Source of the DNA: Rhodothermales bacterium
GTDB lineage: Bacteria; Bacteroidota; Rhodothermia; Rhodothermales; VXPQ01
Direction of reading: 5' to 3'
DNA: 11,373 nucleotides
Assembly: GCA_040904565.1 (NCBI GenBank)
Contig: JBBDTI010000016.1
Span: 11,729 to 23,101 of the forward strand
Shown: piece after piece, positions 1 through 11,373 of the stretch
Layout: every line of letters begins with the position of its first letter
How positions within the stretch are numbered: the first letter of the stretch is position 1
Notes under the pieces: model-generated
What the model was told of the DNA's origin: nothing
Seen by the model: only the letters and a program-made list of their open reading frames with translations
Databases searched by the model: none
Made by a program: the position numbers and the translations under genes

Positions 1-735
1 GCCCCCGAGTATGCTGCGGAGCGTGAGCGCGATCGTGCCCGCCGCCGTGCCGACGCTCAGCGCGTCGCGCCAGCCGAATCCCTGTCGGGTAACGCGGTCG
101 ACCGTCAGCACGTCGCCTTCGAGCAGTTTCGGGTGCATGTTCGGTTCGAGCAGCATCTGTTCGATGGGTGCCTCATAGACCACCCGGCGTCGGCCGTCGG
201 ACTCCTTGCGCAGCAGGCGCACCGTCACGCTGCTCTTCACGCCCGCCTGGCCTCCGGCTTCGAGTCCGCCCGAGAGCGCCACGAGCGCTCCCAGATCGGT
301 GTCCGGGGCGACCTCATAGACGCCGGAGCCCTCTGAGGCTACGACGACGACCTGCACGGTAGCGTCCCCGGGGCGGGCGAATATGCGATACGACGTTCCG
401 GAAGCGACCTGGTCGTTCATCCGGCCGAACTCCTGCGCCGAGGCCGTCGTGCCGATGCAGAGAACGGTGCACAGCATCGTCAACGCCAAAAACACCGCCC
501 GCATGAAGCGCGGCACGGATGGCGCGGCACACGGCGTCGTGGCCGGCTTCGCGGACCGGGTCGCGGTCGGCTTCGCAACCGGGGCTGCCGACTCCTTCGT
601 GACCTGCGTGACGGCCCGTGTCCCGGACGGCTTCGCCGCCGGTTTGGCCGCCCGCGTCTCGAATCGCCCGGCGGATGAGCGTGCGAAGGTCTTCGCGGAT
701 CCCTTGGAGTCCGTCGTCGTGTCGAGCATGTGCAT
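1..735 (-). CDS. Exported SLBB/beta-grasp domain protein, Wza/OPX- or GfcC-like polysaccharide export component (3' end beyond window)
   Basis: Not in ORF track; translated by hand. The frame is open from ATG 735 (alternative ATG 504) to base 1. It reads MRAVFLALTMLCTVLCIGTTASA|QEFGRM... (signal peptide), then ...VQVVVVASEGSGVYEVAPDTDLGALVALSGGL...VRLLRKE...KLLEGDVLTVDR (SLBB-type G.Y / L..L...GG / L..GD.L.V pattern), then a hydrophobic C-terminal segment GFGWRDALSVGTAAGTIALTLRSILGG. ATG 735 is 32 bp downstream of the wzc stop on the same strand. Confidence 0.8.
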   Translation of the reverse strand, partial: MHMLDTTTDSKGSAKTFARSSAGRFETRAAKPAAKPSGTRAVTQVTKESAAPVAKPTATRSAKPATTPCAAPSVPRFMRAVFLALTMLCTVLCIGTTASAQEFGRMNDQVASGTSYRIFARPGDATVQVVVVASEGSGVYEVAPDTDLGALVALSGGLEAGGQAGVKSSVTVRLLRKESDGRRRVVYEAPIEQMLLEPNMHPKLLEGDVLTVDRVTRQGFGWRDALSVGTAAGTIALTLRSILGG

Positions 736-767: not shown

Positions 768-3197
768 CTACGCGCTGACGGCAGGGACGGGCAGCGCGTT
801 GGCCGCCTCATCCTGTCCATAGCCGTACGAATAGCGATTGTAATACTGGGCGTAGTAGCGATACTTGTAGCGATAGCCGCCGGCGCTGATGGGTTCGAAC
901 TGATTCAGCAGCGTGCCGATGACGTTGGCGCCGACGTTCGTGAGCGCATTGAGGCAGTGGTCGTGCTCGTGCGTCTTGGTGGAGCCGGCAAGGGCGACGA
1001 TGATCGTGGCGTCGCACTGCGTCGAGAGCAGCACGGCGTCGGTGGCCATGAAGACCGGCGGCGTATCGAACACGATGACGTCGTATTCCTCGCGGAGCCG
1101 GTAGATCATCTCGCGCATGCGCTTCGAGCCGAGCAGCTCGGCCGGATTCGCGATCGTTTTGCCCGAGGGCAGGGCGAAGAGGTGCTCGATGCCCACGCTA
1201 TCGATCGGCGGCCGCTCGCCCGTCTCGTTGAAGACCTGTTCGATGAGGCCGGGTTCTCTGGACAGACCCAGCTGATGGTGGACGGTCGGACGGCGAAGGT
1301 CGGCGTCGATGACGAGCGTCTTGCGCCCGGCCTGCGCCATGATGACGCCGATGTTTAGAGCGGTGACGGATTTACCCTCGCTCGGACTCGGGCTCGTGAC
1401 GAGGATCGTCTGTACGATCGCGTCGGGGCGGCTGAACTGGATGTTGGTGCGGACGTGCCGGTAGGCCTCCGCCGCCACGGCGGTGGGCTGCACGAGCGTC
1501 ACCAGGCGGGTGCTCACCGTACGCCCCGCGTGTTCGGTCGTCTCGGCCCCGCCGTACTGTTCCTTGATGACGCGGTTTAGTTTCGGGATGACGCCGACCA
1601 CGCTGCCGCCGCGATCTCGGATGTCGTCGGGCGTGTAAATCTTCGTGTCGAGCCGCTGGCGCACCGTTGCGAGGACGATGCCCATCCCCAGCGCGAACAG
1701 CGCGCCGAGGGCCACGTTCTTGCGACGATTCGGGCGCACGGGATAACCCGGCGGGAGGGCTTCCCGGATGATGGCCGCATAGCCGATCTCGGACTCTTCC
1801 GCGATGCGCACCTCCTGCAGCTTCTCTTCGACGTTGACGTACATGCGCTCGGCGGCCTGCCGGGCACGCTGCAGCTGTGCCAGCTCGATCGTCTGTTCGG
1901 GCAGTGTCTTGAGATCCGCTTCGTACTCGGCGAGCCGGTTCGTCATGACGTCCTGCTTGGCACGCAGGCCGCTGATGCGGATGCGGGCCTGGACGACCTG
2001 GCGGTTCAGCTCGGATACCTGGGAGAGCCCACCCCCTTCGACGGTCAGGTCGATGCCGCCGACGGCCAGCACCTCATCCACGTACTGGCGAGAGAGAGCG
2101 GCTATGCTCGTGCGGAGCTGGGCGATCTGCTGGTTGATGTCGGCCAGGCGCGGATCGCCGGCCGGGTCGTCGCGAAGACTGGGATTGCGCAGAAAAGCCT
2201 GCTGCCGGGTGACTTCCAGCTCGGCGATTTTCTGCTGCGCCAGCTCGATGTCGCGCTCGACGCTCGAGGCGACCCGGAGAGCCAGCTGCGGCGAGATGCG
2301 CTCCAGCTCCGATTCGAGCGAGGCGAGCGACGCTTCTTCCATCTGCAGGTCGATGCCCGCCTCGTCACGCGCGGCCTGCAGCTGCGATATCTGAGTAACG
2401 AGAAACTGTCCTTCCGCATCCAGCGCCACGGCGCCGTTGACGCTCATGTACCGGGTGATCCGCTCTTCGACGAGCTGCAGCTCCTCCCGGCGCACCTCCT
2501 CCTGTCGCTCGAGAAAGGAGCGGGAAGCGTGTACGCGGGCGCGGCTGGCCTCCTGGGTCAGTCGGACGTACTCCTCGGCGTAGAGGTTGGCGATCAGGGA
2601 GGCTTCGTCGGGTGACGGACTCAGGGCCGTGACGCGCAGGACGTCGACGTCGCGTCCCTCCGGAGCAATGCGCACGTATCCGAACTGCAGCCGCCGGGCG
2701 ATGTCTTGAACCTTGGGCGTGCTCTCCCCCGCGCCGAGAATGGGGAGCCGTTCATCCGACCCGGGAACGGTCTGCGTGTCGATCAGGCGCTGCGCCGTGC
2801 TGCGCGCGATCGAGAGGGAGTTTCGGATGACGATCAGCTCGTTGGCCAGGGACCGGTCGCTGCGCGCGAAGAGTCCCTGCTCGCCGCCGGGCAGCGCCTC
2901 CCGGGCGTCCGTCTGCCGCGGGTGCACGAGCAGCATAGCGGAGGATTCGTACTCCGGAATCAGCTGCATATTGTACCAGGTGATCGCGCCGGCGATCAGA
3001 ACGAAGGTCGCGATAAGGATCCACTTTCCGCGGTACAGCACGTCGACGGCTTCCTGCACCCGGCCGCTCAGATCGCCGATGTGACCGTAGTCGGCACCGG
3101 GAGACTGGCGCTTGGGTGCTACATTGCGGGCCTCACCGAATGTATCGACGAAATCGAAACGGGTACTCCGTTTCTGGTCCTGCCGGTATGGTTTCAT
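768..3197 (-). CDS. wzc: Polysaccharide co-polymerase / BY tyrosine autokinase (Wzc/GumC-CpsD fusion)
   Basis: 809 aa. Two TM segments (WILIATFVLIAGAITWY; VALGALFALGMGIVLATV) flank a long coiled-coil periplasmic region. Kinase motifs: AEAYRHVRTNI, Walker A TSPSPSEGKS, Walker A' LVIDADLRRP, Walker B VIVFDTPP. C-terminal Tyr cluster YRYKYRYYAQYYNRYSYGY. Confidence 0.95.
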   Translation of the reverse strand: MKPYRQDQKRSTRFDFVDTFGEARNVAPKRQSPGADYGHIGDLSGRVQEAVDVLYRGKWILIATFVLIAGAITWYNMQLIPEYESSAMLLVHPRQTDAREALPGGEQGLFARSDRSLANELIVIRNSLSIARSTAQRLIDTQTVPGSDERLPILGAGESTPKVQDIARRLQFGYVRIAPEGRDVDVLRVTALSPSPDEASLIANLYAEEYVRLTQEASRARVHASRSFLERQEEVRREELQLVEERITRYMSVNGAVALDAEGQFLVTQISQLQAARDEAGIDLQMEEASLASLESELERISPQLALRVASSVERDIELAQQKIAELEVTRQQAFLRNPSLRDDPAGDPRLADINQQIAQLRTSIAALSRQYVDEVLAVGGIDLTVEGGGLSQVSELNRQVVQARIRISGLRAKQDVMTNRLAEYEADLKTLPEQTIELAQLQRARQAAERMYVNVEEKLQEVRIAEESEIGYAAIIREALPPGYPVRPNRRKNVALGALFALGMGIVLATVRQRLDTKIYTPDDIRDRGGSVVGVIPKLNRVIKEQYGGAETTEHAGRTVSTRLVTLVQPTAVAAEAYRHVRTNIQFSRPDAIVQTILVTSPSPSEGKSVTALNIGVIMAQAGRKTLVIDADLRRPTVHHQLGLSREPGLIEQVFNETGERPPIDSVGIEHLFALPSGKTIANPAELLGSKRMREMIYRLREEYDVIVFDTPPVFMATDAVLLSTQCDATIIVALAGSTKTHEHDHCLNALTNVGANVIGTLLNQFEPISAGGYRYKYRYYAQYYNRYSYGYGQDEAANALPVPAVSA

Positions 3198-3637
3198 TGA
3201 ACGCGTAAGTACATGCTAAGAACATAGGAGCATCCAGCATTCAAGCCGCGGAATACCCGAATCGCAGCCGCATATCGATGCTTCAAGCGCCAGTTGTAGA
3301 AAAAATCGAACCATCCTCCCCCATCGCTGCACGTTCGAAACCCGGGACGGGGCCGTGCATCCGGATCCTCTCTTGCAGGCGTTACCTTATATAGTGGGAT
3401 CATCCCGTATCGGCGGCTCGCGCAGGCGTGCACGGTGGGTGCGGCGGACGCTCCGCCACGGAAAACATTTCTGCCCGCCTCGCCAAAGTTTGCCCCTCCG
3501 GACCCTTTGAGGCCAACCCCGATCCACCTTTCTGCGGCCCGCCGCGCATCCATCCTCCCGCAAAAACCCGTCATCTGGACGCCCTTCGCCGCGCATTTCG
3601 GGAATATGGAACGGAGTTCGCAGCCGATACCCGGCAC

Positions 3638-5053
3638 ATGGGAGTCGTCACAATCCAAGACACCGACTTTTTGCTGGATCCGTATCCGGACATAAACAGC
3701 CGCCGCGGCGCGTCCATCCGACGTGCCGTGGCCGTGCTCTTCACCGTGCTCTTCACCGTGCTCGCAGCCGTCGGCACGTCGCGCGCGCAGTCCGCGCTCG
3801 CCGACCGCCTCATGGACCGCGGCTTCGAGAACGTCCGCGTTCGCACGCTACCCGACACAGAATCCGACAGACGGCTCGGCCCGCAATCCGGCCCGCTGCC
3901 CGGCACCCCATCGGACACCCTCCTCCTTTCGTTCGAATACCGCATGGCGCGCGGCTCGCACGCAGGTGTGTGCGAGGCCCTCAAGCTGGCCGGGAGCGGA
4001 TACGCGCACGTCGTCACCATCCTCGAGCATCAGAACGTCCCGATGACGGCCGTAGCCTTCGACGGCGCACCGCGTTCGCGACCCGACCTGCTCGCTGATC
4101 CCGCTATCAGCGGACGCGCCGATTCCTCTTCCGTCCGCCGAGGCCCCGTCGCGCTTGACGCACAGGTTGCCGCGCAGGTCCCCCAGCGCTGCGGCGGCTA
4201 TCGCATCGCCGGAGCATCGATGGACGTACGCCCGTACGTTCGGCAGCTGGAGTCCGGCCACCACGCATCACGACCCCTCATCGACGTCGCACTGCATCCG
4301 CGCTACTCGGCGCTGTTCGGCTTCTACCGCGACCCCGTCATGCTGCAGGTCAACCTGGCGCCGCGGCTTAACGTGCGGCTCTGGCGCGGCTTCGAGGTCG
4401 GTGCACAGATCGTCGTCCCGCTCTACAACGAATTTTCTTCGGAGGGCGACTTCATACGGCCCGGACTCCTTACGGCGAGTCAGTTCATCCGCCTTCCCGG
4501 ACCCACCTTCGTGCGCGCCACGGCCGGCACGTACACCAACCGCCGCTTCGGCCTCGATCTGCGCGCCCGCCGCTTCTTCGCGGACGGTCGCTTCTGGGCG
4601 GGATTCGACGTGGGCCGCACCGGCAACGTTTTCTACCCCAACGGAAGCGTGTTCGTAGAGCGCGATCCGGAGTGGATCGTGCTCGGAACGGCCGGCTTCG
4701 CGTGGAGCCGCCATCACCTGTATGTGGACGGGGCGGCCGGACGGTTTCTGTTCGGGGACGCCGGCGGACGGGTAGAAATCATGCGACAGTTTCGACGCCT
4801 CGACCTCGGCTTCGTTTTCACGCAGACGGTCAACGGGGCCAATGCCGGACTCCGGCTCATCCTCCCGCTCTTCGAGGGGTCGTTCGCCGGCTCGCGCTCG
4901 CTGCGCGTGCGCCCGGCTCACGATTTTACGTGGGACTACCTGTATCGCGCCGGGACGAACGTCGGCGAGGCGTACGAGACCGGCTACTATATGGACCGCG
5001 TCTACCGCCAGCATCAACCGTCCTTTCTGATGGACCTCCTCACTACGCCCTGA
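3638..5053 (+). CDS. Outer-membrane beta-barrel protein resembling the middle domain plus C-terminal barrel of YjbH/GfcD
   Basis: Signal peptide RRAVAVLFTVLFTVLAAVGTSRA|Q and many amphipathic beta-strands. LMDRGFENVRV, PRYSALFG...MLQVNL and AGRFLFGDAGGRVEIMRQF...GLRLILPL match the recalled YjbH C-half pattern (GxYLAGDxGGxxExxxxF...GxxxxxPL). Start uncertain: ATG 3638 preferred over GTG 3428. Confidence 0.75.
   Translation: MGVVTIQDTDFLLDPYPDINSRRGASIRRAVAVLFTVLFTVLAAVGTSRAQSALADRLMDRGFENVRVRTLPDTESDRRLGPQSGPLPGTPSDTLLLSFEYRMARGSHAGVCEALKLAGSGYAHVVTILEHQNVPMTAVAFDGAPRSRPDLLADPAISGRADSSSVRRGPVALDAQVAAQVPQRCGGYRIAGASMDVRPYVRQLESGHHASRPLIDVALHPRYSALFGFYRDPVMLQVNLAPRLNVRLWRGFEVGAQIVVPLYNEFSSEGDFIRPGLLTASQFIRLPGPTFVRATAGTYTNRRFGLDLRARRFFADGRFWAGFDVGRTGNVFYPNGSVFVERDPEWIVLGTAGFAWSRHHLYVDGAAGRFLFGDAGGRVEIMRQFRRLDLGFVFTQTVNGANAGLRLILPLFEGSFAGSRSLRVRPAHDFTWDYLYRAGTNVGEAYETGYYMDRVYRQHQPSFLMDLLTTP
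3732..3763 (+). repeat. In-frame 12-bp perfect tandem repeat (CCGTGCTCTTCA x2.7) in the signal-peptide coding region
   Basis: ccgtgctcttca ccgtgctcttca ccgtgctc encodes VLFT-VLFT-VL. Confidence 0.9.
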
Positions 5054-5066
5054 CCGCTCCGACGTG

Positions 5067-6359
5067 ATGACATCGACCCACCACAACCCCCACTCCAACC
5101 CTGTTCGCTCGGCATCGCGCGGGGCCGTCAGCCGTCTTCGGAGCGGAATCGGACCCTGGAACGGACCGCCGTCCGTGCCCCGGTTCACGATGCGTCCGCG
5201 GCGGCGGCCAGGGCTGCGCTTTGCGCTGCGGATCGTTCCGTGCCTCGTTCTCACTGTCGGCCTTACCGTTGGCCTCACCGGCTGCACGTCCAACCCGATC
5301 GGACCCGTGTCGGATTTCGACTTCGTCTTCGACGAAATCCGGGACGTCCATCTCGGCGAAGCCCCCGACACCTCGACCATTGTCGTCGAATACGAGCCCG
5401 TCGAGGAAGACACCACCTATCTCGAAAAACAGAACCAGTTCATAGCGGATGCCGGCTCCGCCCCGCAGTCCGGCAGCGTCCCCCCCAGCGTCGTCAGCGT
5501 CTCGGAAGCCGTCTTCGCCGCCTTCGACGACGCGAGCGGAGACCGCCTCGGCGTGCTCGCCGAAGAGGCTTCCCTGGATGCCGACGCATTCGTCGAGCAG
5601 CACTACCAGGCGCTCAAGGACTCGACCTCCGACGTATGGCTGTTCGCCGAGCAGATCGCGGATCTGGCCGCCACCGAAGCCGCGCTCGACGAGCTCCTCG
5701 GCGGGTCGACGTCGAACCTCACCGCTCGTCCGACGATCCGTTCTACCCTTGCGTCGAGCCGCCCCGCCCCCTCCTCGGAAGCCGCCCTCGCCGCGAACCG
5801 CGCCGCTCCGTCCCCGACCACCCCATTTACTCCGTTCAGCATGAGCGGCACCTCGTCGTGTGAGACCGACGCCCGCATCCAGACGCAGGACCAGCTCGAA
5901 TCCCTCGACCGGGAGCGCCGGCGCCGGGAAGCCGCTCTGGAACGTGCGCTCCAGAACAGCCTCGAGGCGGTAGAGGCGTTCCGTTCTCGGGAGATGGAAC
6001 GCGTCGCGACGAACGTGGAACGCAGAAAACGTGGCGCGGCGACGTACTATCGTGACGCCGGCGGCGCCATCGTCTCCCTCGTCGAGAACGGCCTGATCAA
6101 CCAGGGAACGGCCGCCAACCTCCGCATGGCGATGGTCACCGTCGTCATCTCACGGCTGAAGCGGACCATCGAATTCGAGCGCCGATCCGGATCGTCCATC
6201 GCGCAGACGGCCGAAGAAGCCGTCGCCGCGGCCCGGACCCGGTACGAGCAGCAGCTCGCCCAGCTCGAGGCCAGTTACGACGACGCCGTCACGACGCTCG
6301 GACGCGTCGAGTCGACCGCGGTCGCAGATTGCCACGATCAGGGAACTTCCAGCGGATGA
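5067..6359 (+). CDS. Hypothetical lipoprotein with C-terminal coiled-coil/helical hairpin
   Basis: Basic N-region, hydrophobic stretch and lipobox LTG|C (Cys codon 5283-5285). Acidic N-domain, Ser/Pro/Ala linker, and an A/E/R-rich helical region bracketed by Cys codons at 5859 and 6330. Its stop overlaps the next ATG (ATGA 6356-6359). ATG 5190 is an alternative start giving a normal-length signal peptide. Confidence 0.8.
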   Translation: MTSTHHNPHSNPVRSASRGAVSRLRSGIGPWNGPPSVPRFTMRPRRRPGLRFALRIVPCLVLTVGLTVGLTGCTSNPIGPVSDFDFVFDEIRDVHLGEAPDTSTIVVEYEPVEEDTTYLEKQNQFIADAGSAPQSGSVPPSVVSVSEAVFAAFDDASGDRLGVLAEEASLDADAFVEQHYQALKDSTSDVWLFAEQIADLAATEAALDELLGGSTSNLTARPTIRSTLASSRPAPSSEAALAANRAAPSPTTPFTPFSMSGTSSCETDARIQTQDQLESLDRERRRREAALERALQNSLEAVEAFRSREMERVATNVERRKRGAATYYRDAGGAIVSLVENGLINQGTAANLRMAMVTVVISRLKRTIEFERRSGSSIAQTAEEAVAAARTRYEQQLAQLEASYDDAVTTLGRVESTAVADCHDQGTSSG

Positions 6360-7057
6360 GCGGCACCACGATCCCCTACACGCACTCGAAAGTACACCGC
6401 TCCATGTACCGACTCATACACGGCCTTGCACGCGTGGCGGTCGCGCTGACGCTCCTGCTTGCGTGCGCGCCGGCGGCCGCGCAGGTGATTTCCATTCGAT
6501 CGGCTGGACTCTCGAGCAGCTGGTACGCTCCCGACCTCGGCCTCTATGACGACCAGTATCTGCTCGATTTCGGGGGATCCGTCCTCGCGGAGGCCCATCT
6601 GGAATTCGACGTACTCGGCATCGCGACCCTCCGCACCTCGACCGGACACTGGCAGAGCACGGGCCGCGGCGACGCCCGGGAACCCGACGGACGGCCGCAG
6701 ACGGCCACGCTCCGCATCGTCCCGTTTACCGCCGCGCTGCTCGTGCAGCCGGACGCCCGCGGCGGTCCGGTACCGGTCTTCGGCGCCGGCATCACCCAGA
6801 ATCTCGTGCAGCGCTCGTTCCGGCTCGCGCGCATCGACGAACCGGAAACGTTCGATACGTTCTCGGGGAACGGCCGAGACTACACCTACCACGGCCTCGT
6901 CGGCATCAACCTGCCCGTGGGCGGAGCCGTTCGAGCCGGATTCGAATGGCGGTACGTCTGGGGACGCTTTCGCGAAGAACCTATCCCTGCGGCCCGCTCC
7001 GGCGTGGCGCTCGACGGCCTTCAATTCGGACTCTCGCTACAGTACCGCATCCGATGA
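6356..7057 (+). CDS. Small (probably 8-stranded, OmpA/OmpW-like) outer-membrane beta-barrel protein
   Basis: Signal peptide VAVALTLLLACAPAAA|Q. About 190 aa mature with alternating strands (LRIVPFTAALL, PVFGAGI, YHGLVGINL, RAGFEWRYVWG) and terminal strand LQFGLSLQYRIR. ATGA overlaps at both ends. Alternative start ATG 6404. Confidence 0.8.
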   Translation: MSGTTIPYTHSKVHRSMYRLIHGLARVAVALTLLLACAPAAAQVISIRSAGLSSSWYAPDLGLYDDQYLLDFGGSVLAEAHLEFDVLGIATLRTSTGHWQSTGRGDAREPDGRPQTATLRIVPFTAALLVQPDARGGPVPVFGAGITQNLVQRSFRLARIDEPETFDTFSGNGRDYTYHGLVGINLPVGGAVRAGFEWRYVWGRFREEPIPAARSGVALDGLQFGLSLQYRIR

Positions 7058-7800
7058 TGAACGACCCGCACAGCACGACAGCTCCCCGTGGCTCGGCCCA
7101 GCGCATGAAGCGCACGGCCCTCGTTCTTTTCGCGCTCCTGCTCGCGGCCTTCGGACCGGCGGCGCAGGCCCAGTCCCTCTCCGGGGTCAACGGCCTTGTC
7201 ACGGTGCCCACGGCCGAGGTGTCGCCGGACGCCACCCTGACGACCGGGTTCAACGTGCTTAACCGGAGCGCGCTCGACTATCACGCCGGACGCCACCACG
7301 CGACGTCGCCCTACCTCTCCCTCGCCTATCTCCCGTTCCTGGAGGTCGGGTTTCGCCTGACGCGGGCGGATTCCGAGATCGAAGAGGCCTTCGGCGACCG
7401 GACGGTCAACGCCCGGGTCCTCCTCCTCGGCGAAGGCCCGCGTCACCCATCCCTTCTCGTCGGCATCCACGATTTCGTCGGACAGAAAAGACACTTTCAG
7501 TCGACCTACGTCGTCGCGAGCAAGCGCCTCGAGGACGTTCCCCACCTCGACCACGTCAGCCTCCACCTCGGGTACGGCACGCGGCTGCTCGACGCGGAGC
7601 TCTATGAATTCGACGGACCGTTCGGCGGGGTGGCCGTCGCCCCCTCTTCCGGCATCCGCCTGCTCGCCGAATATACCTCTTCCCGGGTCAACGTCGGTCT
7701 CGACGCCGGGCCGTTCCGCGGGATGCGGATCCTGGTGGGGTGGATGGACTTCCGCGCCGTATCTGGCGGCGTCAGCTACTCGTTCGTGCTGCCGAAGTAG
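7054..7800 (+). CDS. YjbH-domain outer-membrane protein corresponding to the N-terminal barrel of YjbH/GfcD
   Basis: Signal peptide MKRTALVLFALLLAAFGPAAQA|Q. Motifs GVNGLVTVPTAE, LPFLEVGFRLT, DRTVNARVLLLGE...PSLLVGIHDFVG...YVVASK, HLGYG and FGGV...RLLAEY...NVG are collinear with the recalled YjbH N-half (GxxGLxxxPTAR; PWLExxxRYT; DxKxRLxxE...PxxAVGxRDxxG...YxVASK; FGGVEY...LxxEY). ATG 7054 overlaps the upstream stop; alternative start 7105. Confidence 0.85.
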   Translation: MMNDPHSTTAPRGSAQRMKRTALVLFALLLAAFGPAAQAQSLSGVNGLVTVPTAEVSPDATLTTGFNVLNRSALDYHAGRHHATSPYLSLAYLPFLEVGFRLTRADSEIEEAFGDRTVNARVLLLGEGPRHPSLLVGIHDFVGQKRHFQSTYVVASKRLEDVPHLDHVSLHLGYGTRLLDAELYEFDGPFGGVAVAPSSGIRLLAEYTSSRVNVGLDAGPFRGMRILVGWMDFRAVSGGVSYSFVLPK

Positions 7801-7859
7801 TACCCCGCGCGGTTAACAGGGCCGGCAGAGAGACGAGAGCGAAGCTCGACTCACGCCAG

Positions 7860-8044
7860 TAAACTGTGCAGATCAAGGCACGCGACAAGCCGAGAAACGA
7901 GCTCGCACGGCGCCAAGACAACGCGACATTGGGTTGTGAGCGACTAACGGAGCGCAGCGGAGTAATGAGGCGTACTTAATCAGTTAACTGAGAACGTACG
8001 CCGCAGTGATCGGCGCGGAGTGCAACGCAGAGATGCGCAGTTTA
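7860..8044. repeat. Structured intergenic element with terminal inverted repeats (MITE/REP-like or structured RNA)
   Basis: TAAACTGTGCA (7860-7870) pairs with TGCGCAGTTTA (8034-8044) with one G-U wobble. Internal stem 7901-7907/7935-7941 and a 34-bp dyad at 7969-8002. Lies between convergent genes. Confidence 0.55.
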
Positions 8045-8995
8045 TCAACGGCACTCGTCGACGTACCACGCGTACGTCTTGCGGAGGCCGTCCTCGAGCG
8101 ACGTACCGGCGGTCCATCCCAGCGATGCCATCCGCGACACGTCCAGCAGTTTTCTCGGCGTGCCGTCCGGCTTCGACGTGTCGTAGCGGATCTCGCTCTG
8201 CCCTCCCACCACGTCCCGGATCGTCTCGGCCAGCTCCGTGATGGAGAGATCCTCGCCCACGCCCACGTTCAGCATCCCGTGCTCGGCCGTTTCGTGAAGA
8301 GCCTCTTCGGGCGCGCGGAGCGTAAACAGGATCGCGTCCGCCAGATCATCCACATACAGAAATTCGCGCCGCGGCGTGCCCGTCCCCCACAGCGTCACGG
8401 AATCGTCGCCCGCCTCGTGAGACTTCCGGAGCAGCGCCGGAAGGACGTGCGACGTCTCGAGGTCGAAGTTGTCGTGCGGACCGTACAGGTTCGTCGGCAT
8501 CAACGTGATGAAGTCGTCGCCGTGCTGGCGCCGGTAGGCCTCACACGTCTTCGTACCCGCGATCTTGGCGATGGCGTACCACTGGTTCGTCGGCTCGAGC
8601 GGACCCGTAAGCAGGTGCTCCTCCTTCATCGGCTGCGGCGCGTGCTTGGGGTAGATGCACGAGCTGCCGAGAAAGATGAGGCGCCGGACGCCGGACGCGT
8701 GCGCGGCTCGAATGACGTTCGACTGGATTGCGATATTGTCGGCGATGAAATCGGCCGGATACCGGTCGTTCGCCAGAATCCCGCCCACCCGGGCGGCGGC
8801 CAGCACGACGAAGGCGGGTGCTTCCTCCTCGAAAAACCGGCGCGTCGCCGCCTGATCGCGCAGGTCGAGCTCGTCGCGACGGCGAACGAGCAGGTTGTCA
8901 TACCCTTCTGATTCGAGCCGCCGAACGACGGCGGAGCCTACGAGTCCACGGTGGCCCGCCACGTAGATCGGCGCGGATGGATCGGATAGATGCAC
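8045..8995 (-). CDS. fcl: GDP-L-fucose synthase (GDP-4-keto-6-deoxymannose epimerase/reductase)
   Basis: IYVAGHRGLVGSA (Rossmann), AAARVGGILAN, FLGSSCIYPK, YAIAK (YxxxK), PTNLYGPHDNF, WGTGTPRREFLYVDDLADA, KPDGTPRKLLD. GTG 8995 gives 316 aa and is preceded by AAGGA. The ORF-track extension to 9262 is not credible. Confidence 0.96.
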   Translation of the reverse strand: MHLSDPSAPIYVAGHRGLVGSAVVRRLESEGYDNLLVRRRDELDLRDQAATRRFFEEEAPAFVVLAAARVGGILANDRYPADFIADNIAIQSNVIRAAHASGVRRLIFLGSSCIYPKHAPQPMKEEHLLTGPLEPTNQWYAIAKIAGTKTCEAYRRQHGDDFITLMPTNLYGPHDNFDLETSHVLPALLRKSHEAGDDSVTLWGTGTPRREFLYVDDLADAILFTLRAPEEALHETAEHGMLNVGVGEDLSITELAETIRDVVGGQSEIRYDTSKPDGTPRKLLDVSRMASLGWTAGTSLEDGLRKTYAWYVDECR

Positions 8996-8999
8996 GGTG

Positions 9000-9048
9000 T
9001 CCTTACAAGAATATTTACAATAATATCCGGAGCAATAATATCTCGTTA
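9000..9048. promoter_or_regulatory. AT-rich leader/promoter patch upstream of fcl, with SD-like AAGGA and repeated CAATAATATC
   Basis: Sharp AT-rich island in a high-GC window. CAATAATATC at 9018-9027 and 9033-9042, with a degenerate CAAGAATATT at 9006-9015. Minus-strand AAGGA (9004-9000) lies 4 nt before the GTG. Confidence 0.5.
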
Positions 9049-9166
9049 CGAATGAATGTTGCGCCGGAGGTCCCGGACGAATGGAGGTTGCGGCGGAGGA
9101 CCCGGTCGAATGGTGGTTGCGGCGGAGGTCCCGGACGATGGTGGTTGCGCCGCAGGTCCCCGTCGA
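9049..9166. repeat. Tandem repeat, 4 copies of a 28-29 bp unit
   Basis: Units start at 9049, 9078, 9107 and 9136. Consensus CGAATGGTGGTTGCGSCGGAGGTCCCGGW, head-to-tail with no spacers. Confidence 0.92.
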
Positions 9167-9349
9167 CCCGCCGAAGGAAGGTAACAACAATGCGCCTTCC
9201 GCATTAGATCCGCGCGGCGGCGCCCGTCCGCCGGAACCTCGGTAGCCCCGAAACTTATGCACCCTGGCTCCTTCGCGAGCCTATCGCCGCAACGCGCCCG
9301 GCGCGCTGCGCCGAGATATCTCCTCTTTTTTTGACCGACACATTCGGAT

Positions 9350-10435
9350 ATGGAGTACGCCGTGATCATGGCCGGCGGCATCGGCAGCCGGTTCTGGCCC
9401 CAGAGTCGCAAGGACAACCCGAAACAGTTTTTGCGGGTGTTCGGCGAGCACACGATGATTCAGAACACGGTGGCCCGGCTGCAGGGTGTAGTACCGGCCG
9501 AGCGCATCCTCATCGTCACCCACGAGCGCTACGTCGAGCAGACCCGCGAGCAGCTTCCGGCCATCCCGGAGGAGAACATTCTCGCCGAGCCCATCGCCCG
9601 CAATACCGCGCCCTGCATCGCCTTCGCCGCCGTCAAATTGCTCGCCAGGGATCCCGACGCGACCATGGTCGTGCTGCCGGCGGACCACGTCATCCGGAAC
9701 GTGAAGCGGTTTCACGCCGTGCTGCGCGCCGCGATCGACAAGGCGAAGCAGAAAGATACGCTCGTCACGATCGGCATCAATCCGACCCACCCCGAGACGG
9801 GTTACGGATACATCCAGTATGACGGGTCGAGCCGGGACGAGGAGGAGGACGACTCGACGCCGCGCGCTTTTCCGGTCAAAACGTTCGCCGAAAAGCCCGA
9901 CATCGCGACGGCCGAGCGGTTCGTGGACTCAGGTGACTTCCTGTGGAACAGCGGGATGTTCGTCTGGCGCGCCGATACGATCCTGGACCAGATGCGCCGA
10001 CACCTTGCCCAGGCCTACGAAGCCTTCGAGCCGCTGCCCGACGCGGTCGGAACCGACCGCGAGCGCGAGGCCGTTAAGGAGGCCTACTCGAGAAGCCCCC
10101 ACATCTCCATCGATTACGGCGTGATGGAGCGCGCCGACAAGGTGTTCGTCGTGCCCGGCACCTTCGGATGGAACGACGTCGGCGACTGGCGTTCCGTATA
10201 CGATCTGAAGGAGCAGGACAAGCACGGCAACGCCCTCGACGGCAACGTGATCGTCCACGACTCGAGTCGCTGCCTCGTCGAGGCCGACGACCGGCTCGTG
10301 GTCCTCGTGGGGATGCACGACGTGGTCGTGGTCGACACCGAAGACGCCCTCCTCGTCTGCTCGCGCGAGAGCACCCAGCAGGTGAAGAATGTCGTCGACT
10401 ACCTGCACGCGCACCAGTTCGAAGACTACGTGTGA
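9350..10435 (+). CDS. manC: Mannose-1-phosphate guanylyltransferase (monofunctional, no cupin/PMI domain)
   Basis: VIMAGGIGSRFWPQSR, PKQFL, EPIARNTAPC, VLPADH, PETGYGYI, FAEKPD, WNSGMF, ISIDYGVME, GWNDVGDW. The 361-aa protein ends after the beta-helix region. Confidence 0.95.
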   Translation: MEYAVIMAGGIGSRFWPQSRKDNPKQFLRVFGEHTMIQNTVARLQGVVPAERILIVTHERYVEQTREQLPAIPEENILAEPIARNTAPCIAFAAVKLLARDPDATMVVLPADHVIRNVKRFHAVLRAAIDKAKQKDTLVTIGINPTHPETGYGYIQYDGSSRDEEEDDSTPRAFPVKTFAEKPDIATAERFVDSGDFLWNSGMFVWRADTILDQMRRHLAQAYEAFEPLPDAVGTDREREAVKEAYSRSPHISIDYGVMERADKVFVVPGTFGWNDVGDWRSVYDLKEQDKHGNALDGNVIVHDSSRCLVEADDRLVVLVGMHDVVVVDTEDALLVCSRESTQQVKNVVDYLHAHQFEDYV

Positions 10436-10663: not shown

Positions 10664-11373
10664 ATGAACGAATCGGAACGCCCGTCGGAAACGATGGAAG
10701 AGAGGAGGGGCGGCCCGTCCGCCGAAACGGCCATCTCGATCGAGACCGAGGAGCTGGAGGATCTTCCCCGACGCGAACGAGAACGGCTGATGCGCCGTCG
10801 GCTCATGCTCGACGCCGCGTTGAGTGTATTCGCTGAAAAAGGATATGCCGACGCCACGCTCGACGAGATCGCCCAGCGGGCGGAATTCGGCAAGGGTACG
10901 CTGTACAACTATTTCGAGGGGGGCAAGGAGGAGATCCTGATCGCCGTCTTCGACGACGTGTACGCGGCCCTTCACCAGCTCATCGAGCGGACGTTCAGTC
11001 CGGCCCTCGTACGCGGGCACCCGTTCCGCGACGTGCTGGAAGGCTTTCTTACCGCGCTCCTTTCCTTCTTCAACGAACGGCAGGATCAGTTCATGATCAT
11101 GCTTAAGGAAGGATACCGCCTGATGTTCAACGACGAACCGGAGAAAGCGGCGTACCTGCTGGAAAAGAGCGAGGGCGTGATTCGCGCGCTCGTACCCGCC
11201 ATCGCGGAAGCGCAGCGGTCCGGCGTACTGCGCGACATTCCCCCTCACTCGATCGCGCACATGATTATGGGAAACGTGCGGGGATACCACATGCACCAGT
11301 GCATGGCCCGGTGCCGGCACACGTTCGCGGAGGGGGAGCCCGAGGGGGCGTCCGAACACGTGGGGGAGCCCGA
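10664..11373 (+). CDS. TetR/AcrR family transcriptional regulator (3' end beyond window)
   Basis: Not in ORF track; translated by hand from ATG 10664 (alternative 10694). ...RRERERLMRRRLMLDAALSVFAEKGYADATLDEIAQRAEFGKGTLYNYFEGGKEEIL... is a canonical TetR HTH. The helical C-domain includes IAEAQRSGVLRDIPP. The frame is open to the window end. Confidence 0.95.
   Translation, partial: MNESERPSETMEERRGGPSAETAISIETEELEDLPRRERERLMRRRLMLDAALSVFAEKGYADATLDEIAQRAEFGKGTLYNYFEGGKEEILIAVFDDVYAALHQLIERTFSPALVRGHPFRDVLEGFLTALLSFFNERQDQFMIMLKEGYRLMFNDEPEKAAYLLEKSEGVIRALVPAIAEAQRSGVLRDIPPHSIAHMIMGNVRGYHMHQCMARCRHTFAEGEPEGASEHVGEP

Follow-up and report, generated by a model that had tools for sequence, protein, structure and literature searches.

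The centre of the 11,373-nt stretch of Rhodothermales bacterium DNA analysed in this study (GCA_040904565.1, contig JBBDTI010000016.1, positions 11,729-23,101; "the window" below denotes this whole stretch) holds four genes, g1 to g4, which encode the double-barrel outer-membrane protein known in Escherichia coli as YjbH or GfcD in two separate pieces, accompanied by a lipoprotein and a further small barrel. The open reading frame (ORF) listing and the junction sequences place all four in the same direction on the + strand. The first, g1 (3638..5053, +, 471 aa), codes for the middle domain and the C-terminal barrel of YjbH/GfcD as a secreted protein of its own. The second, g2 (5190..6359, +), is predicted to code for a lipoprotein with an unconserved body (389-aa precursor, lipobox LTGC, 358 aa when mature), closing with the tail C-H-D-Q-G-T-S-S-G (6330..6356, +), in which a tail alignment picks out an H-[D/E]-[Q/G]-G tag. 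The third, g3 (6356..7057, +, 233 aa), probably specifies a small outer-membrane beta-barrel resembling the OMP_b-brl type, which lies outside the module that proved to be conserved; and the last, g4 (7054..7800, +, 248 aa), codes for the N-terminal 12-strand barrel of YjbH/GfcD, again as a separate secreted protein.

Signal sequences could be read from the translations at the N-termini of all four products: that of g1 is a hydrophobic stretch ending in SRAQ/S, that of g3 ends in LLACAPAAAQ/V, and that of g4 in GPAAQAQ/S. The original prediction, which had described four same-strand genes each with a signal peptide, is borne out in this respect; it had further described the genes as separated by 13 bp or by ATGA overlaps, and this holds in part. 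The ATG of g3 overlaps the TGA of g2 as ATGA, and the ATG of g4 overlaps the TGA of g3 in the same manner. The 13-bp gap between g1 and g2 requires the latter to begin at 5067, one of two possible upstream starts (5064/5067), and an ATG at 5067 would place 73 residues ahead of the lipobox Cys. The ATG at 5190 appears to be the one compatible with a lipoprotein signal peptide, giving a g1-g2 spacer of 136 bp.

The assignment of g1 and g4 to one double-barrel family comes from two kinds of profile comparison. The Pfam profile PF06082 (YjbH) spans 658 positions. The match of g4 lies at 5-129 (E 1.1e-14, 54.7 bits); that of g1 lies at 384-469 and has E 2e-5 and 24.1 bits, barely above the cut-off of 24. 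In hhalign comparisons with E. coli K-12 YjbH, the g4 family aligned with residues 26-270 (98.7% probability, E 2.5e-16) and the g1 family with residues 313-666 (97.7% probability, E 2e-12), two ranges that do not overlap. The placement of the N barrel in the last gene and of the middle domain with the C barrel in the first, as originally proposed, thus survives both comparisons, including the one in which the two proteins might have matched the same region of YjbH. We accordingly regard g1 and g4 as the non-overlapping C-part (middle domain plus C barrel) and N-part of a YjbH/GfcD-type double barrel, encoded as separate proteins.

Predicted structures are consistent with this division. The AlphaFold2 model of g4 (predicted local distance difference test score, pLDDT, 77; 14-sequence alignment) is a 12-strand barrel preceded by 40-60 N-terminal residues at low confidence. 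Its Foldseek matches were KdgM (E 2.2e-5; TMq/TMt 0.46/0.62), FapF (E 6e-5; 0.43/0.40) and NanC, all of them likewise 12-strand barrels, with low identity (10-13%) and modest TM scores. The model of g1 (pLDDT 85; 78 sequences) shows a signal helix at residues 20-44, a periplasmic alpha/beta domain at 53-142, approximately 13 long strands over 215-435 and C-terminal helices at 452-469. With VIA-align, its barrel (residues ~211-441) matched OmpG (Z 13.1), CymA (12.8), PelB (11.8), PgaA (10.6) and BcsC (10.3); Foldseek returned nothing from the PDB for the g1 model at E <= 0.001 and weak porin matches at most, and a sequence search of the PDB with the g1 and g4 families matched no solved structure. 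In passages of PMC11494523 and PMC9603273, the N barrel of GfcD is given 12 strands and its C barrel 13; a middle domain stands between the two, and the C barrel has a C-terminal plug and opens laterally. The two models agree with that description in their strand numbers, the middle domain and the C-terminal helices; the same part of PMC9603273 assigns the N barrel as FapF-like, and that of PMC11494523 proposes a lateral gate in GfcD-C for lipid-anchored molecules. Concerning FapF itself, whose system combines a 12-strand barrel, an N-terminal plug, a coiled coil and the genes fapA-E, there are no fap-like genes among the ORFs of the window, and the likeness of g4 extends to the barrel fold only.

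Set against E. coli YjbH/GfcD (encoded in yjbEFGH and gfcABCDE-etp-etk), the likenesses are the same 12-strand N barrel, found here in g4; the same middle domain and 13-strand C barrel (~13 strands in our model) with a C-terminal plug helix, found here in g1; a linked locus for a Wzc-type kinase; and a lipoprotein encoded alongside (GfcB/YjbF in E. coli). Unlike E. coli, where the sequence of YjbH runs as a single polypeptide in the order N barrel, middle domain, C barrel (N-M-C), the window divides the parts between two genes ordered M+C ... N, both products carrying a signal peptide of their own, and it lacks homologues of YjbE/F/G (GfcA/B/C). Neither g2 nor g3 matched the YjbE/GfcA, YjbF/GfcB or YjbG/GfcC families in Pfam or NCBIfam at E <= 1, in line with the original view that the two enclosed genes do not resemble these partners, and the window offers no other candidate for them. 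The lipoprotein g2 is unrelated to YjbF, and the H-[D/E]-[Q/G]-G tail is absent from YjbE, YjbF and YjbG.

The split, which had initially been taken for a rarity, turned out to be nothing of the kind. A PF06082 scan of the reading frames of 301 genomes sampled from the phylum gave matches in 25, and in none did one frame hold both the N and the C parts: N-type matches cover profile positions ~4-225 and come from frames of 236-288 aa, apart from the 416-aa stop-to-stop frame of the window itself, C-type matches cover ~267-618 in frames of 419-578 aa, and a single odd, weak sub-threshold match in G228 covers 169-247 in a 791-aa frame. An exhaustive search with g1 that used no profile recovered 428 cluster representatives at E <= 0.001; among the best 150 of these, 144 are shorter than 600 aa and six have at least 600 aa. 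Hence, the split is the rule in the phylum and not unique to this locus. The distribution of the N barrel within the window's own order is patchy, with 23 of 285 genomes encoding it, as do three of 40 nearer relatives. The reversed order in turn, with the C-part ahead of the N barrel, is conserved in relatives, as a survey of gene neighbourhoods prompted by the original prediction established.

The few long relatives of g1 are instructive as regards the relation between the two barrels. P0065, one of the six of at least 600 aa, is by Pfam a canonical fusion of N followed by C. P0055, a metagenomic protein of 658 aa, has its C-part at 173-419 followed by an N-part at 450-620; it carries a single signal peptide, and the conserved mature start of the N barrel comes directly after the C barrel. 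P0055 is thus a natural M-C-N fusion, its domain order being circularly permuted with respect to E. coli YjbH. Since natural fusions exist in both orders (N-M-C in E. coli YjbH and M-C-N in P0055), the two barrels are likely to act together, and the original proposal that the halves cooperate gains support from the same fusions.

Apart from these fusions, four C-part proteins of 603-686 aa (P0021, P0024, P0028 and P0037) have an N-terminal LysM and/or coiled-coil region in place of the N barrel according to Pfam, which suggests that the C-part is anchored to peptidoglycan in some lineages. A distant subfamily also came to light in which the N-barrel and C-part genes are convergent; it occurs in seven genomes, belonging to one family of the window's order (loci L066-L073 and L086-L088) and to Prolixibacteraceae (L092 and L094-L096, from Prolixibacteraceae/Tangfeifania metagenome-assembled genomes, MAGs). 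A different shared ending, ...SPG, is found on the ORF of 257-331 aa located upstream of the N barrel in L068, L070, L072 and L073.

What is new concerns the gene lying between the two parts. We examined 29 genomes together with several kb of context, and 16 of them encode a lipoprotein ending in H-[D/E]-[Q/G]-G. Eleven of these 16 have the lipoprotein gene after the C-part and ahead of the N barrel: the window (where g3 is inserted), G006, G031, G390, G471, G467, G393, G173, G054, G069 and a Longimicrobiaceae MAG, the last of which belongs to Gemmatimonadota and so extends the module to two phyla. G156 has N, then C, then the lipoprotein; the contig of G164 stops right after the lipoprotein; and in G392 and an uncultured-bacterium contig the genes are on one strand and spaced apart. 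G031 and G006 have one gene between the C-part and the N barrel, coding for a lipoprotein unrelated in sequence to g2 and furnished with the same ending, and the distant phylum members G173, G054 and G069 are laid out likewise, their lipoproteins ending in ...C-H-E-G-G-G-G-E/S. Across 13 aligned tails, the His and the first Gly of H-[D/E]-[Q/G]-G are invariant and a Cys precedes in 10; all three tails added afterwards have the Cys. A lipobox-like Cys closes the signal peptide in 16 of 16 tail proteins (11 recognised by regular expression, 5 by eye).

Between these two ends little is shared. The bodies range from 55 to ~420 mature residues, are unrelated among genomes (BLASTP E 0.021 to 9), and fall into types that are Ala/Glu-rich, helical, built of CarboxypepD_reg-like Ig domains, or Cys-rich; those of G390 and G471 show weak DUF7467 matches, and g2 has no Pfam or NCBIfam family match. 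Our analysis therefore points to the lipoprotein as the conserved third member, recognisable by its C-terminal tail alone, of a conserved three-gene module: C-part, tail-tagged lipoprotein and N barrel.

Some variants of the lipoprotein deserve a separate mention. G393 (L081:9123-9485) and G392 (L084:2419-2805) encode mini versions of 55-57 mature residues with 8-9 Cys, which amount to little more than a lipid anchor joined to a Cys-rich knot and the tail. In G156 (L040:7399-8763) and G164 (L044:9621-10928), a Trp-rich stretch leads into H-D-Q-G, and a short run of hydrophobic residues with a final Tyr comes after it, so that the tail looks like a beta-hairpin with the motif at its turn; the G156 protein further has a ZU5 match of 25.6 bits (Pfam cut-off 21). 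Two candidate connections were pursued and set aside. The first is the NCBIfam model NF058595 ("lipo-invert putative C-terminal anchoring domain"), which matched the G031 lipoprotein (L006:8856-10049) at E 0.068 and 13.5 bits, against a cut-off of 37; the match lies at residues 223-262 and not in the tail, there is none for g2 at E <= 1, a literature search on the name came back empty, and we regard it as noise. The second is His139 of the N barrel (GxHDF) as a residue linked to the tail. In 13 of 15 tail loci this residue is His, but the same holds for nine close relatives in whose fetched DNA no tail was seen; the distant subfamily and E. coli have Arg instead. The residue follows kinship, and we draw no conclusion of co-evolution with the tail from it.

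The tail itself is sparingly distributed. Among 899 ORFs of at least 100 aa from the module loci, 14 contain the pattern, all of them copies of six ORFs lying between the barrel genes. Of 17,561 ORFs of at least 100 aa in the genome of the window, two match a loose form of the pattern: one is g2 and the other a 119-aa Arg/Ser-rich ORF with the motif away from its end, leaving g2 as the only terminal match. We scanned the 301 genomes with back-translated patterns for CHDQGG and CHEGGG, using reversed patterns as a control, and found 16 places for the former (2 in the control) and 27 for the latter (9 in the control). In-frame lipoproteins with either sequence at their terminus occur in G142, G054 and G173 only, all three of which have both YjbH halves; none was found in the 276 genomes lacking a PF06082 match, and the remaining matches are out of frame or in short Arg-rich ORFs. 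The test is conservative, because such strict patterns miss variant tails, that of g2 included. One match of another sort is L155 (G163:C1:3949832-3952848), where CHEGGG stands eight residues from the end of a 478-aa ORF with no signal peptide, in a genome devoid of a YjbH match; this is probably a non-coding frame.

These distributions bear on how closely the three genes belong together. One account would be that the N barrel and the C-part are separate porins, the lipoprotein is unrelated to both, and their adjacency reflects nothing beyond shared regulation. Consistent with this, the three genes are unlinked in G142, where the lipoprotein gene sits among housekeeping genes; the C-part is divergent from the N barrel in G388, and convergent in the order family and Prolixibacteraceae mentioned above; and in G094 and G205 the C-part alone was seen in the DNA fetched. 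Against it stand the natural fusions of the barrels in both orders, the sharing of one locus by both parts in most genomes examined, the lipoprotein positioned exactly between them in 11 genomes from two phyla, and the presence of all three even in the genome of G142. We hence consider independent neighbours an improbable explanation.

The small barrel g3 raises the converse possibility, put forward in the original prediction, of a three-barrel machine in which g1, g3 and g4 form a complex around the lipoprotein. The gene is translationally coupled to both of its neighbours via the ATGA overlaps and, going by its model, its product is a credible small outer-membrane barrel of the OMP_b-brl type: a structure search of the ESM Atlas gave TM 0.76/0.72 to clusters of PF13505 (OMP_b-brl), and Pfam itself gave no match. 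In BLASTP searches no homologue of g3 was found in any other locus fetched, so we interpret it as a local insertion and not as part of the module. Together with the lipoprotein gene lying directly before the N-barrel gene in 10 other genomes, this makes the three-barrel machine very improbable, and that element of the prediction falls away.

The unconserved body of the lipoprotein supplies the case for a different function. Under this alternative, the barrel pair is a dedicated exporter of a single substrate, the lipoprotein, with the tail as its recognition signal and the variable body as a payload displayed on the surface; the polypeptide would pass through the barrel lumen while its acyl chains leave via the lateral opening proposed for the GfcD C barrel. 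Conservation limited to the lipid anchor and ~5 to 10 residues at the very end, with unrelated bodies (the BLASTP range above, and differing weak Pfam domains), is the pattern of cargo with a sorting signal; the window's own genome has one tagged protein, encoded inside the barrel pair; the module lacks a nearby Wzc in 25 of the 29 genomes. The N barrel, moreover, resembles FapF, described in a section of PMC9603273 as a polypeptide secretion barrel, and the lateral gate of GfcD-C is, in the portion of PMC11494523 that discusses it, proposed for lipid-anchored molecules. Weighing the other way, the two mini-lipoproteins with their 55-57 mature residues and 8-9 Cys have little to display; G385 and L091 have adjacent barrels and no tagged lipoprotein was found there; and in E. 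coli, where both barrels are kept, the GfcD/YjbH operons encode no tagged protein of this kind. We see dedicated display as the main rival reading, doubtful though not far-fetched. A bolder version would make the three proteins a lipoprotein export pathway for a single substrate in Bacteroidota and Gemmatimonadota, with the tail as its sorting signal and a laterally open, odd-stranded GfcD-type barrel freeing the lipid anchor into the outer leaflet, so that the body comes to lie on the surface; this is speculative, and we think it unlikely. Were it true, E. coli GfcD/YjbH would be a fused descendant or relative of an exporter of lipid-anchored cargo and not a plain polysaccharide pore.

A function in polysaccharide export is suggested by the surroundings of the module in the window. 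Divergent from g1, across an intergenic region of 440 bp (3198..3637, with no strand assigned), lies the gene for a Wzc-type polysaccharide co-polymerase and tyrosine autokinase (768..3197, -, 809 aa), identified by Pfam (Wzz, GNVR and AAA_31) and by NCBIfam (TIGR01007, 157.6 bits against a cut-off of 108). Coupled to it is a gene for a small secreted protein with a C-terminal hydrophobic helix (1..735, -, with a signal-peptide-compatible start at 504). Downstream of the module lie fcl, for a GDP-L-fucose synthase-like epimerase/reductase (8045..9262, -; Pfam Epimerase E 2.1e-66 over ORF residues 99-323, the true start probably being inside the ORF), and manC, for a mannose-1-phosphate guanylyltransferase (9350..10435, +; Pfam NTP_transferase E 1.2e-44 and ManC_GMP_beta-helix). 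In G390 a single operon comprises the C-part, the lipoprotein, the N barrel, Wzc and the small protein. Homologues of the latter (172-185 aa) adjoin Wzc in G390 and in G388, following it, and alignment with them indicates that the small protein of the window is essentially complete, although its last residues reach the edge of the window, beyond which the bases read N. At E <= 1 it is matched by nothing in Pfam or NCBIfam, its homologues have no match there either, and the best PDB profile match, ComEA, is weak (E 0.26); it is possible that this is a minimal OPX/SLBB-like protein. Of the "Wzc/SLBB proteins" originally named as neighbours, Wzc is therefore confirmed, whereas the SLBB label found no Pfam or NCBIfam match behind it and is unverified.

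Taken together, we favour the following reading as the probable one: the locus encodes an outer-membrane module of the GfcD/YjbH kind in split form, to which a tail-tagged lipoprotein is dedicated and which is coupled here with Wzc for polysaccharide export. The comparisons above establish the homology of both halves, their separation, the conserved order and the tail motif with its specificity; the assembly, the docking of the tail and polysaccharide as the substrate are parts that we infer. Briefly, g1, g2 and g4 would assemble as one outer-membrane complex, the lipid anchor and the conserved C-terminal Cys-His-Asp/Glu-x-Gly tail of the lipoprotein fastening it to the barrels. In this genome the complex might form the outer-membrane end of a Wzx/Wzy-type polysaccharide pathway, in which Wzc and the small secreted neighbour would hand the polymer to the C barrel, whose predicted fold resembles the exopolysaccharide pores PelB, PgaA and BcsC; g3 would be a local addition to the gene set of the complex. 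Portions of PMC8592465 and PMC9603273 give GfcD/YjbH a role in polysaccharide export and report that the lipoprotein GfcB, together with GfcC, binds GfcD.

Several observations weigh against this proposal. A Wzc-like gene occurs in the fetched DNA of four of the 29 genomes only (the window, G390, G388 and G156), so the polysaccharide link is not general to the module; the linkage to wzc that the original prediction proposed to survey holds for these four, in G390 within one operon, and no further. The small Wzc-linked protein has no Poly_export or SLBB domain detectable with Pfam or by a PDB profile search. The polysaccharide pores are no better matches for the g1 barrel than OmpG and CymA, which equal or surpass them, and the fold alone names no substrate. 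The unconserved body of the lipoprotein (55 to ~420 residues; helical, Ig-like/ZU5 or Cys-rich) is a pattern commoner for cargo than for a structural subunit. No tail lipoprotein was found in the examined DNA of 13 of the 29 genomes; in G385 and the Longimicrobium locus L091 the C-part adjoins the N barrel with nothing between; and whole-genome HDQGG scans of G388, G384, G385 and G094 gave no terminal match. A complex prediction with g1 51-471, g4 40-248 and the last 60 residues of g2, using their own alignments and no controls, scored 0.01 against a mark of 0.32, which speaks neither for nor against an assembly.

An analogy to the window is offered by the composite OPX/beta-barrel translocons of Myxococcus xanthus (WzaB-WzpB-WzcB and relatives), which, as laid out in parts of PMC9603273, PMC12819527 and PMC9601211, likewise combine a co-polymerase of the Wzc type with a small secreted protein that shows no pore domain for the outer membrane and with a separate barrel nearby, in their case PgaA-like; the match of the g1 barrel to PgaA ranks below those to OmpG and CymA. 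The adjacent PCP-2a protein (Wzc) of such translocons is present in the window. Where those have an 18-strand Wzp porin, the window has a barrel of the GfcD-C type with a middle domain; a further barrel, of 12 strands, and a tagged lipoprotein are added, the small neighbour has no Poly_export/SLBB match, and Wzc linkage is confined to four of the 29 genomes. Pairs of an outer-membrane barrel and a dedicated lipoprotein are familiar from LptD-LptE and from RcsF threaded through OmpA/C/F. As in those, the barrel here is encoded with, and possibly occupied by, a dedicated lipoprotein, and a lateral opening has been proposed for lipid-bearing substrates; there is no homology between the systems, and the recognisable element here is a short C-terminal tail on an unconserved body.

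GfcD/YjbH has been described as the largest family of multi-barrel outer-membrane proteins. According to a statement in Solan et al. 2021, the paper in which the family was defined, neither YjbH-GfcD domain has close single-barrel homologues (PMC8346858, in part); contrary to this, our alignments indicate that both barrels do have them. In the main-text Table 1 of PMC9603273 there are 2-3 hits to stand-alone GfcD/YjbH C barrels near OPX genes, and an expression table in PMC10434189 lists BT0292 and BT0293 of B. thetaiotaomicron as adjacent "YjbH domain-containing" genes. A literature search of main texts (supplements may list stand-alone barrels) met with no account of the split pair or its permuted order, of a fusion in that order, or of a lipoprotein with the tail tag, and searching with the tail motif strings returned unrelated papers only. 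What was already known thus comprises "YjbH domain-containing" database labels and a few stand-alone C-barrel hits; what is new is the tagged lipoprotein in between.

In more general terms, the wide occurrence of the two barrels as separate proteins, mostly in the order opposite to that of E. coli, amounts to a natural dissection of the double barrel, making either half accessible by itself to expression, deletion and imaging. The tail-tagged lipoprotein offers a new handle on the same problem: a short conserved C-terminal motif on an otherwise freely evolving protein, specific to genomes with both halves. The motif points to a defined protein-protein contact, and this contact could separate a polysaccharide pore with an accessory lipoprotein from a display device.

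With regard to the remaining features of the window, a scan of 3150-8100 with the sigma-70 consensus, which does not cover Bacteroidota-type promoters, gave 0 promoter-like sites, and a terminator scan of the same interval gave two terminator-like sites against 2.2 in shuffles. Downstream of manC, a gene labelled by eye from its translation as a TetR-family regulator (10664..11371, +) runs past the end of the window.

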